A stretch of DNA of 64,000 bases from an uncultured Leptospirales bacterium (GCA_964529415.1 CAZGWD010000013.1:29466-93465), one strand, 5' to 3'; shown: positions 4,186 through 25,226, counted from the first letter of the stretch. Translations and numbers: made by a program. The notes: a model not told the origin generated them from the letters alone.

Positions 4186-4383
4186 CCCCCCGTCCCCCGA
4201 AGGGGGCGAGTTTAAAGAAATTTAATAAATTGAATTTCTGAAAAATATTGAAATTGAAATATTGAGTATCAAAAATGAAAATGAATAAAAAATATTTCAA
4301 ATATTACAAAAATGATAAAATATGCATTATCGATGAAGTAATTATTTATCACATTTTTTCGCCCCCTTTGGGGGACGGAGGGC
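4186..4383. repeat. intergenic element bracketed by 25-nt GC-hairpin inverted repeats (copy 1)
   Basis: The left arm ccccccgtcccccgaagggggcgag (4186-4210) matches the reverse complement of the right arm at 4358-4383. Each arm contains its own ccccc-gaa/ttt-ggggg hairpin. The interior is AT-rich with aatatt/ttgaaa repeats. Confidence 0.6.
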
Positions 4384-4464: not shown

Positions 4465-5142
4465 ATGAAGAATAAAGCAGTAATATTATTAAGCGGAGGG
4501 CTTGATTCAGCAACTGTTGCAGGTATAGCCATTAGCGAAGATTTTGAGCTATACGCTTTATCATTTAATTACGGGCAGAGACATGGCATTGAGCTTGAGT
4601 GTTCCGGAAAAGTTGCAGCTTTTTTTAAAATTAAAAATCATATTACAATTGATATACCGGCTGAGATTTTTAATTCAGCTCTTGTTAAAAATTCAGGTAT
4701 AGCTGTGCCGAAATCGGGCTTGGATCCTTTAAAAATTCCTTCTACGTATGTGCCTGCAAGAAATATTCTTTTTCTTTCATATGCGCTTGCTGCTGCAGAG
4801 AGTTTCGGCGCATCAGATATTTTTATCGGGGCAAATGCAGTTGATTACAGCGGGTACCCTGACTGCAGACCGGAATTTTTTACTTCTTTCGAGAATATGG
4901 CAAATATAGGAACTAAAGCTGCAATCGAAGGTAAGCCGTTTAAAATTCATACCCCAATTATTGATTTAAAAAAAGCAGAGATTATTAAAAAAGGGATTTC
5001 ACTCGGAATCGACTATTCAATAACACACAGCTGTTATGATCCGGATGCATCGGGTCTGGCCTGCGGTGCCTGCGACAGCTGCATTCTGAGAAGAAACGGA
5101 TTTGCTGATGCCGGAATTCCTGATCCGACAAAATATATATGA
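4465..5142 (+). CDS. queC: 7-cyano-7-deazaguanine synthase
   Basis: PP-loop motif LLSGGLDSAT at the N-terminus and a C-terminal Zn-binding cysteine cluster (CGACDSC), at a typical QueC length. Confidence 0.9.
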   Translation: MKNKAVILLSGGLDSATVAGIAISEDFELYALSFNYGQRHGIELECSGKVAAFFKIKNHITIDIPAEIFNSALVKNSGIAVPKSGLDPLKIPSTYVPARNILFLSYALAAAESFGASDIFIGANAVDYSGYPDCRPEFFTSFENMANIGTKAAIEGKPFKIHTPIIDLKKAEIIKKGISLGIDYSITHSCYDPDASGLACGACDSCILRRNGFADAGIPDPTKYI

Positions 5143-23744: not shown

Positions 23745-24206
23745 TTGAATATAAAAAATGTCTCTATAATTTTATTATTATTTATAGCACAATTTTCGTG
23801 CGGGAAAAAAACTGCGGGTACTCCTGAAGAAGTTTTTGAAAAGCTTGCAAAAACAGATAATTATAATGAGGCAAAATTATATTTTACAAACGGCACAATT
23901 AAACTGGTGGATTCAGCTGTATCAAAAGGTATGCTTGATGAAAAGGACAGAACGGATTTTCTTCACCTGTTCAATAAAAAAACAAAGTGGGTTATAACCA
24001 ATACTTCGAATTACGGAAATGCAGCAGGGATTACTCTTCGTTTTACGAAACATCCTGTAGAAAATCTGAAAGGAACTGATATGACATATAATCTTGTAAA
24101 AGAAGACGGCTCCTGGAAGATTGATCTTGAAAAGGAGATGAAAGATTCTCTTTCGTCTTATACGCCGAATGATGCTGAGAAATATTTGAAAGATATGCTG
24201 AAATAA
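23745..24206 (+). CDS. hypothetical lipoprotein
   Basis: Signal peptide with a lipobox (LLLFIAQFSCGKK). Confidence 0.4.
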   Translation: MNIKNVSIILLLFIAQFSCGKKTAGTPEEVFEKLAKTDNYNEAKLYFTNGTIKLVDSAVSKGMLDEKDRTDFLHLFNKKTKWVITNTSNYGNAAGITLRFTKHPVENLKGTDMTYNLVKEDGSWKIDLEKEMKDSLSSYTPNDAEKYLKDMLK

Positions 24207-24234
24207 ACTTTATAAGATTTTAAAATACACAATG

Positions 24235-24642
24235 GAACGCGGATGACGCGGATGATTATGATGATCGCGGATTTTTAAAGGATTTTAAGGGGTTTAGTAA
24301 TCCCCCCGTCCCCCAAAGGGGGCGAGTAGGAGTGGAATACAGGTGTTTTTTGAAAACCAAAGAAATATAGTACCTGCTTATATTTTTGAGCTTGTAGGAA
24401 ATCTATAAATCTATATGACAGAAACAAGATTGTATTTCTGATAAGTCTTGAAATAGAAACTTTGTGTATTGAAGTTGAATATGATAATATACGGTTTATA
24501 AATGAAGTTATAATTAATGACGTGCCCCCTTCGGGGGTCAGGGGGTTTTGAATAAAAAAAAGATATAAGAGGGCATGAGAATTTAATTGATAATTTTATT
24601 TTTATCTTAATAAATCATAAACAATCCGCGTCATCCGCGTTC
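24235..24642. mobile_element. MITE-like nested inverted-repeat element (copy 2 of the GC-hairpin element inside 19-bp perfect TIRs)
   Basis: Perfect 19-bp terminal inverted repeats gaacgcggatgacgcggat (24235-24253) and atccgcgtcatccgcgttc (24624-24642). Inside them, GC-hairpin arms at 24302-24326 and 24522-24545 are homologous to those at 4186-4210 and 4358-4383. No ORF. Confidence 0.45.
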
Positions 24643-24671
24643 TATTGCTTTTTTTTTGAGAAGATAAAATT

Positions 24672-25226
24672 TCAGTAGTTCGATATGGCGAGGTTGAGAA
24701 TAATATCTTCCATCATCTCTTTGGCTTCAATGCTCTCAGGGTTCATCTGCATATAGTTCTGGCATGAAATAAGCGCCATGAATAGCGATCCTGCTTCAAT
24801 GTATAGGCTGATCAGATTTAAATGTGTCTCGTCAATGTCCGGTTCGCTTTCAAGAGATTTTGTGTAATTGTAAACTGCTTTTTCAAAATCGCCCATTTCC
24901 CAGAAAACTCCTGCTAAATTTGCAAGTGTAATCGCATCGTCCGGATTGTGGCGCAGGGCTTTTTCAAGAACAATTTTTGATTCATCAAGCTTGCCCAATT
25001 CGCAGAGACTGATTCCAAGGCCGTTTAAAATGTCGGGGTCTGTATCGTCTATGGACGCTCCGAGGCTGAAAAGCTTTAATGCTTCCTCGTAATTTCCATT
25101 TTCTACAAATTCATATCCTGTATCTATGAGAAGATTGGGATCATTTTCGAAATCGTCTATATCGAGAGATTCTTCTCTCATGAGCAGGTTTTTTAAGTTG
25201 CTGTTGAATCTCTGTTTATCTTTCAT
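24672..25226 (-). CDS. TPR-repeat protein
   Basis: Multiple TPR-like helical repeats (YEEALKLFSLGASID, GLGISLCELGKLDESKIVLEKALRHNPDD, ANLAGVFWEMGDFEKAVYNYTKSLE). Confidence 0.6.
   Translation of the reverse strand: MKDKQRFNSNLKNLLMREESLDIDDFENDPNLLIDTGYEFVENGNYEEALKLFSLGASIDDTDPDILNGLGISLCELGKLDESKIVLEKALRHNPDDAITLANLAGVFWEMGDFEKAVYNYTKSLESEPDIDETHLNLISLYIEAGSLFMALISCQNYMQMNPESIEAKEMMEDIILNLAISNY

Follow-up and report, generated by a model that had tools for sequence, protein, structure and literature searches.

Nested repeats between convergent genes of an uncultured Leptospirales bacterium probably comprise two non-autonomous mobile-type elements, the outer one a gene-less member of a widespread family of heptamer-array palindromes

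REPINs and REP elements were reportedly described together with a RAYT gene by Bertels and Rainey in 2011. The RAYT protein is an IS200-like Y1 transposase, and REPs are species-specific. Miniature inverted-repeat elements (MITEs) and mobile insertion cassettes are exemplified by Correia, Nezha and MIC231. The attC sites of chromosomal integrons occur in a very broad range of hosts, which overlaps the range of the repeat family considered here. Intervening sequences of 23S rRNA are small, stem-bounded cassettes that are excised by RNase III, and the intervening sequence of Coxiella contains tandem GACAGAT heptamers (PMC4990558). By analogy, the repeat described below appears to come closest to a population of REPINs or MITEs that has a small coding partner. 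It is set apart by arms that are heptamer arrays, by a PD-(D/E)XK mini-gene that lies inside the palindrome, and by a terminus of 19-23 nt that is common to many phyla.

The repeat was found in a stretch of 64,000 nucleotides (64 kb), which is referred to here as the window. The original prediction placed in it a 408-bp element with perfect 19-bp terminal inverted repeats, and these repeats are exact: GAACGCGGATGACGCGGAT at 24235-24253 (+) has its exact reverse complement at 24624-24642, and the 19-mer had no match, with up to 3 mismatches tolerated, in any of 100 dinucleotide-preserving shuffles of the window. In our judgement the 408-bp unit probably represents two non-autonomous mobile-type elements, one inserted in the other, of which the outer is a gene-less copy of a widespread heptamer-array palindrome. 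The figure of 408 bp itself has to be given up as a unit: that of the family is a palindrome of 80-140 nt, and the unit of insertion or deletion at this site is 24207-24671. The parts of the region and a sibling copy of the inner element are as follows (L001, L123, L126 and L129 are loci of relatives, compared below).

24207-24230, no strand: AT-rich outer flank on the left of the indel unit, missing from the empty site of L129; forms an imperfect inverted repeat with 24647-24671
24231-24262, plus strand: left arm, AATG followed by the 19-mer GAACGCGGAT-GACGCGGAT and by GATTATGAT; three units of 9-10 nt
24263-24301, plus strand: degenerate inner units of the left arm, GATCGCGGAT, TTTTAAAGGAT, TTTAAGGGGT and others
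24302-24545, no strand: inner GC-hairpin element of 244 bp, with the ends CCCCCCGTCCCCCAAAGGGGGCGAGT ... GCCCCCTTCGGGGGTCAGGGGG; left end 24302-24327, right end 24522-24545
24546-24613, no strand: AT-rich rest of the loop of the outer element, which aligns with the loops of L001, L126 and L123; no ORF
24614-24646, minus strand: right arm, ATCATAAAC-A followed by ATCCGCGTC-ATCCGCGTTC and TATT; mirror of the left arm with one bulged A
24647-24671, no strand: right outer flank of the indel unit, as delimited by comparison of relatives; inverted-repeat partner of 24207-24230
24672-24675, no strand: TCAG, the stop codon of the TPR gene (minus strand) plus G
4186-4382, no strand: sibling GC-hairpin copy, flanked by a 659-aa ORF without family match and by queC; 82 nt separate its end from the start codon of queC (4465) downstream

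The inverted repeat is longer than 19 nt. Its core arms occupy 24231-24262 and 24614-24646, and an imperfect extension of the arms (49 nt, 76% complementary) runs to both stop codons. Internal gcggatga direct repeats had been reported in the left arm, and CGCGGATGA indeed occurs there twice in tandem at 24238-24255, with a third CGCGGAT at 24266. The units at 24263-24301 look like AT-decayed heptamer repeats. Members of the family were defined here by inverted arms ending in A(A/T)T(G/A)GAAC and carrying at least two C(G/A)C(G/A)GAT heptamers at a spacing of 9-10 nt. The 4-nt extension A(A/T)T(G/A) of the left arm in the window is the family consensus, and both core arms match the consensus of 241 arms as well as the arms found around GxxExxY genes, which are discussed below. 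No GxxExxY homologue is present within the 64-kb window, where the outer arms occur in a single copy; this copy is a gene-less family member, as are most copies.

The unit is located between convergent genes, as had been predicted, namely a 153-aa ORF (+, stop codon at 24204-24206), for which no family match was found, and a TPR gene (-, stop codon at 24672-24674). The predicted lack of coding capacity is also borne out, the sole ORF of at least 40 aa inside the unit being a 50-aa TTG ORF at 24275-24427 (-) that is probably spurious. Folded as single-stranded DNA, the segment 24200-24680 forms nested stems with an energy of -62.9 kcal/mol (z = -5.46).

The strength of this fold would suit a structured non-coding RNA closed by the 19-bp helix, either an sRNA or an RNase III-processed RNA like the 23S rRNA intervening sequences, which are likewise bounded by a stem and excised by RNase III and which in Coxiella carry heptamers similar to those seen here (PMC4990558). 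We nevertheless regard such an RNA as very improbable. No Rfam family reached its gathering score in the window, and searches of this region (to E values of up to 5) and of 18 family loci returned only chance-level matches with E of 0.7 or more; tRNA and tmRNA genes are also absent from the window. The interior is unconserved even in close relatives. Pairs between arms show no wobble bias (916 Watson-Crick, 36 G-U, 40 A-C and 143 other), and the complementarity of inner arms is 0.52 for the two arms of one element against 0.42 across elements, which for the most part reflects the shared consensus. With no excess of G-U pairs, and with own-arm complementarity barely above that across elements, an RNA stem kept by compensatory change is disfavoured.

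Six related loci were gathered by exact-protein look-ups and a homologue search with the 153-aa protein. They are given here with the identity of that protein to its counterpart in the window.

L001 (93%): both arms; no GC-hairpin element; the loop is made up of short repeats of the GGATTAAG type
L126 (81%): both arms, with one mismatch; short loop; no GC-hairpin element
L123 (89%): left arm only, the right arm being deleted; no GC-hairpin element
L127/L128 (83%): unrelated spacer of 115 nt
L129 (85%): no spacer, TAA abutting TCAGTAGTT, with which the TPR gene ends

The content of the site thus differs between relatives: it is filled in the window, L001, L123 and L126, empty in L129, and occupied by different sequence in L127/L128. 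Both the outer and the inner element are indel-polymorphic in this group. The loops vary as well, and the array of GGATTAAG-type units in L001 is longer than the units at 24263-24301 of the window. In L123 (about 4655-4690, corresponding to 24590-24665 of the window) the right arm has been lost by a deletion of ~50 nt between two ATTTTAT(T)TTT-like stretches, and the left arm is perfect.

A neighbour-joining tree of the flanking gene has the topology (L127,(L126,(L129,(L123,(L001,window))))), in which the element-bearing L126 branches outside L129 with its empty site. Because of this branching order, the outer element was most likely present before the L126 split and secondarily lost in L129. 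The ancestor shared by the window, L001, L123 and L126 would already have had it between the convergent genes, its arms would have stayed intact since then, and L129 would have lost it cleanly. Among the element-bearing loci, none of 28 columns of the left arm is variable (window, L001, L123 and L126) and one of 34 columns of the right arm (window, L001 and L126), so that the arms have 1/62 variable columns versus 7/31 in the adjacent flanks; the flanking gene has diverged by up to 18% at the DNA level. The arms must therefore have been constrained, or homogenised by exchange with other copies. Since it predates the L126 split and has kept its arms while the flanks diverged, the copy in the window appears to be an old resident and not a recent insertion. 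No insertion event came to light, and a copy that looks so ancient and conserved also fits a sequence that is beneficial to the host or maintained by gene conversion. In L126 and L001 a second TCAG follows directly upon the stop codon of the other gene, so that the unit is bounded by TCAG...TCAG, and the empty site of L129 has a single TCAG. This arrangement is either a 4-bp target-site duplication followed by later precise excision, or microhomology used in a deletion.

The near invariance of the arms at four orthologous loci, with flanks and neighbouring gene diverged by up to 18%, might also be due to a host-functional structure between convergent genes that is kept by selection without mobility. 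Such a structure could terminate transcription in both directions, protect mRNA 3' ends as a hairpin, or offer a host regulator an array of binding sites. A position right after two stop codons, typical of many family members (numerous copies start directly after a stop codon), would agree with such a role, as would the under-representation of the 19-mer inside long open frames (0.41 versus 0.86 at random positions, by a crude measure). The sole terminator-like site of the unit (24526-24545 plus a T run) forms part of the inner element. Against a host structure, no T run follows the outer stem, L129 has no spacer at all at this site and L127/L128 have an unrelated one, the loop is hypervariable, and mismatches between arms lack a G-U bias on either strand (36 versus 40). 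Moreover, the same 19-23 nt have unrelated housekeeping genes as neighbours in over 100 species from many phyla, and a gene-specific regulatory site therefore cannot explain the family. On balance we consider a host-functional origin unlikely.

The reading as nested mobile-type elements draws further on the inner element. As the original prediction had it, the 19-bp repeats enclose a second copy of a GC-hairpin element: the copy at 24302-24545 and its sibling at 4186-4382 have ~30 nt in common on the left and ~60 nt on the right. Near queC and the sibling copy, Rfam models at gathering score detected no preQ1 riboswitch. A third copy, very similar to window 24302-24545, is located at about 273-580 of L129, upstream of the 153-aa gene; the window has no GC-hairpin element at the matching position, and the downstream site in L129 is empty. 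At the orthologous site the inner element is missing from L001, L126 and L123, and its insertion is for this reason taken as specific to the closest lineage of the window. Because copies occur at three different loci, each missing in some relative, the inner element can be regarded as mobile within the group. These comparisons suggest that it is a separate, lineage-specific, MITE-like insertion nested in the outer one. The 244-bp element would have inserted into the repeat array of the outer loop once the lineage of the window had separated from L001. Successive MITE insertions had been proposed for this locus. The nesting stands, as outer arms occur without the inner element in L001, L126 and L123, and L129 has an empty site with its GC-hairpin element elsewhere; the assignment to classical MITEs does not, there being no target-site duplication next to the repeats and no transposase among 150 neighbouring ORFs. 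On this reading the intergenic region is a decayed composite of selfish repeats, neither a gene nor a known regulatory RNA.

Beyond the window, the terminal repeat belongs to a dispersed, multi-copy family, which under the terms of the original prediction speaks for mobility. When the exact 19-mer was scanned in one genome per species (596 Gb, both strands), at least 120 loci were recovered, compared to a chance expectation of ~4 matches (4^19). Classified by record title, the loci listed are distributed over Bacteroidota (61), Chloroflexota (23), Planctomycetota (7), Acidobacteriota (6), Calditrichota (4), Ignavibacteriota (3), Desulfobacterota (2) and others (10), and 4 loci among the matches listed are on archaeal MAG contigs (Methanoperedenaceae and Nitrososphaeria). 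For MAGs, the archaeal ones included, taxonomy is that of the record titles only; for L038 and L093, labelled archaeal, the neighbouring genes were uninformative. Cultured hosts among the loci listed are strains of Flavobacterium, Brumimicrobium and Geomonas. Going by these titles, nearly unchanged inverted ends occur in more than 10 bacterial phyla and in some archaeal genome bins. In IMG/VR the 19-mer is present in 6 contigs only, and phages are thus no obvious vector. The neighbours are ordinary genes (150 ORFs with 206 Pfam families).

Most copies are palindromes of 80-140 nt with arms built from CGCGGAT-type heptamer arrays at 9-10-nt spacing, and most of the matches listed are inverted 19-mer pairs 30-140 nt apart. 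A typical member reads (A/T)T(A/G)GAACGCGGAT GACGCGGAT nnnGCGGAT nnnCGCGGAT TTTT ..., followed by the mirror image. Hardly any variation is seen between phyla in the outermost 23 nt, A(A/T)T(G/A)-GAACGCGGAT-GACGCGGAT, and the inverted repeat stops 4 nt beyond the 19-mer. The inner parts of the arms behave differently, with an identity of 0.66 within a genome versus 0.38 between genomes, i.e. they form genome-specific subfamilies; likeness of the inner units within genomes points to amplification or homogenisation there. One Chitinophagales MAG contains 28 arms in 48 kb. In the literature that was searched, no paper was found that contains the 17-mer core or describes the repeats, and the family is apparently undescribed so far, although such absence is no proof.

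Some loci depart from the typical form. At 3860-4070 of L021, a Flavobacterium MAG, a 96-nt tandem repeat has one 19-mer per unit in the same orientation, and is thus an array and not a palindrome. A composite variant from Saprospiraceae/Chitinophagales (L020 6437-6633, L044 5138-5308, L082 3313-3516, and L111 25-404 and 5288-5430) has a conserved core that forms hairpins of its own (CTGCTGCCTTCGGCAGC ... TTGCCGAAGGCAA) and is flanked to the left and right by several tandem 19-mer units. In L027 (about 470-520) a family member begins right after a tRNA-like 3' end (GGTTCGAATCC...). The neighbouring ORFs of loci L003-L100 include two putative restriction endonucleases of the Uma2 family (PF05685), which is likewise a small PD-(D/E)XK family.

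As in MITEs, terminal inverted repeats (exact over 19 nt, 23-32 nt with extensions) surround a short non-coding sequence. The 64-kb window has a single copy of the arms, and multiple copies within one genome are seen in other genomes, e.g. in the Chitinophagales MAG. Small size, lack of a transposase, presence/absence polymorphism and nesting are further points of likeness, and the passenger gene carried by some copies recalls mobile insertion cassettes. Target-site duplications, however, do not adjoin the repeats: across 73 elements no direct repeat of at least 3 nt was enriched at offsets of 0-15 nt (k of 2-8; palindromic AT aside). A search for a transposase family with matching ends had also been proposed. 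The listed Pfam families of the 150 neighbouring ORFs contain no transposase, integrase or recombinase, the Y1 type included, and no autonomous IS with matching ends was found among the neighbours; the gene that recurs between arms instead encodes a PD-(D/E)XK protein of ~125 aa. This GxxExxY gene, the candidate coding partner with matching arms, specifies a protein without known transposition activity. Arms that are multi-unit arrays, and a whole element that is one long palindrome, are other differences from MITEs. Because an adjacent target-site duplication and a known transposase are both lacking, the outer element is MITE/REPIN-like and not a classical MITE.

The REPIN side of this likeness is an intergenic, multi-copy arrangement in which a repeated palindromic unit occurs twice, in inverted orientation, and folds into a long hairpin. 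The two kinds of element also have in common genome-specific populations, the lack of a target-site duplication, a small associated gene that is itself flanked by repeats, and orthologous copies that can persist for long. A REPIN/RAYT system proper was rejected, because the flanked gene encodes the PF13366/TIGR04256 PD-(D/E)XK protein and not a RAYT, i.e. not an IS200-like Y1 transposase. In addition, the gene here is inside a single palindrome, the arms are heptamer arrays spaced at 9-10 nt, and the terminal 19-23 nt are common to many phyla, unlike the species-specific REPs.

Integron-type attC sites were considered as well, with the GxxExxY genes as cassettes moved by a tyrosine recombinase. 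Like attC sites, the elements are imperfect palindromes (80-140 nt, a similar size) whose outer ends carry AAC and GTT, respectively; they are associated with small genes, for which no promoter was identified, and have a very broad host range that overlaps that of chromosomal integrons. An attC site, with its R''/L''...L'/R' architecture, stands at the 3' end of a cassette, in arrays beside intI. Here, however, the gene lies inside the palindrome and not beside it; the elements are solitary and form no cassette arrays; no integrase is encoded by the 150 neighbouring ORFs; and the ends, ATAGAAC/GTTCTAT or TTGGAAC/GTTCCAA, do not fit the attC consensus RYYYAAC/GTTRRRY. The attC assignment was therefore rejected, and an integron origin seems to us extremely doubtful.

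Three of the at least 120 loci have long loops, and in each of these the loop holds a GxxExxY gene (TIGR04256; PF13366, PDDEXK_3) exactly between the arms; no others were found in the listed 19-mer loci by tblastn. The association was also seen among 80 GxxExxY genes sampled independently from metagenomes: correctly oriented 19-mer-like arms stand on both sides of 23 of them, and a further 13 have a single arm. With the two sets pooled (80 + 3), 50 of 83 genes have at least two correctly oriented heptamers on each side, where the background probability per side is 0.005. Variant arm subfamilies around these genes are based on CACGGAT, CGCAGAT, CACAGAT or CGCTGAT, and the two arms of a cassette carry the same heptamer variant in 19 of 28 cases (6.7 expected). 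The similarity of the proteins tracks arm type only weakly (identity of 0.619 within types and 0.608 between types, a difference of 0.01), for which reason the GxxExxY gene may be a passenger; a specific co-evolution of protein and site is unsupported. The start codon often falls in the innermost unit, where ATG AAC GCG GAT encodes MNAD. As the start codon and first residues are provided by the innermost heptamer unit, arm and gene overlap.

The GxxExxY/PF13366 family is huge, with at least 7,996 clusters recovered at an E value of 1e-10 or below. Residues E30, D69, E79 and K81 are invariant in the family, and the E...D...ExK residues are intact. The structural model (pLDDT 90.9) has as its nearest solved folds Cas4, lambda-exonuclease-like enzymes, Hjc resolvase and tRNA-splicing endonuclease, and no sequence-level relative was found in the PDB; the model describes a putative minimal PD-(D/E)XK nuclease. 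A 2012 survey counts PF13366 among the families of unknown function and reports that it was transferred multiple times between Bacteria and Archaea (PMC3424549). Only passing mentions of GxxExxY, PF13366 or TIGR04256 were found in the literature. The cargo seen between arms in the loci examined consists of GxxExxY genes and one AbiJ_NTD4 gene, of which only GxxExxY recurs. The AbiJ_NTD4 gene (277 aa; abortive-infection-type domain, E = 3e-36) lies between inward-facing arms at 1078-2423 of L132, an IMG/VR contig. Many GxxExxY proteins in L157-L214 (e.g. L167, L204 and L213) start with MNAD, MNTD or MSAD.

We suggest that the gene-less palindromes, which are far more numerous, relate to the GxxExxY mini-cassettes as MITEs and REPINs relate to their coding partners. 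The arms would function as DNA, each presenting a series of binding sites about one helical turn apart, and a protein that reads heptamer arrays on DNA might copy or maintain the palindromes in trans. Its substrate could be a duplex, or else a hairpin or cruciform extruded from it. For such a reader the GxxExxY nuclease is the sole candidate seen; it could instead be a passenger, as protein similarity barely follows arm type and an AbiJ_NTD4 gene is also found between arms. A broader proposal is offered tentatively: the CGCGGAT-array palindromes, together with the GxxExxY genes that they bracket, may be undescribed ultra-small mobile elements (about 0.1-0.5 kb) of many phyla, possibly of both prokaryotic domains, whose only protein, the PD-(D/E)XK nuclease of ~125 aa, would recognise the arrays on hairpin or cruciform DNA. 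Gene-less copies would then be non-autonomous, and 23S rRNA intervening sequences might be relatives.

Should this possibility hold, a protein family of thousands with unknown function would gain a testable role and a defined DNA partner. It would also add a repeat family with ends of 19-23 nt conserved across phyla, which is unusual for REP- or MITE-type repeats and would imply either that the repeats often spread horizontally or that their recognition site is under strong constraint. The same reading might account for many spurious "hypothetical proteins" and many assembly breaks in genomes of Bacteroidota, Chloroflexota and Planctomycetota, and there would be a lead on the origin of 23S rRNA intervening sequences. 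These sequences resemble the GxxExxY cassettes in being stem-bounded mini-cassettes of ~0.4-0.5 kb with one ORF of ~120 aa, sporadic in occurrence and horizontally transferred, and the GACAGAT heptamers of Coxiella resemble decayed CACAGAT/CGCAGAT units of the outer family. By analogy, a relationship between the two may exist. In contrast to the elements described here, however, intervening sequences sit in rRNA helices from which they are removed by RNase III, and their ORF encodes S23p, a four-helix-bundle protein and not a GxxExxY protein; no S23p gene was seen between arms in the family loci examined.

An unusual setting of a GxxExxY cassette was observed in Ca. Promineifilum breve and activated-sludge contigs (L217 1114-1662; also L216 and L218-L225), where it is located between a 235-aa Fer2_4/Fer4 ORF and a 723-aa molybdopterin ORF. 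The two ORFs resemble two halves of a formate-dehydrogenase-type alpha subunit, and the sequence arrangement suggests that the cassette may have split a gene of this type. In L217 the TAG stop codon of the upstream ORF is part of the ATAG of the element terminus, and AGGAG...ATG follows the right arm.
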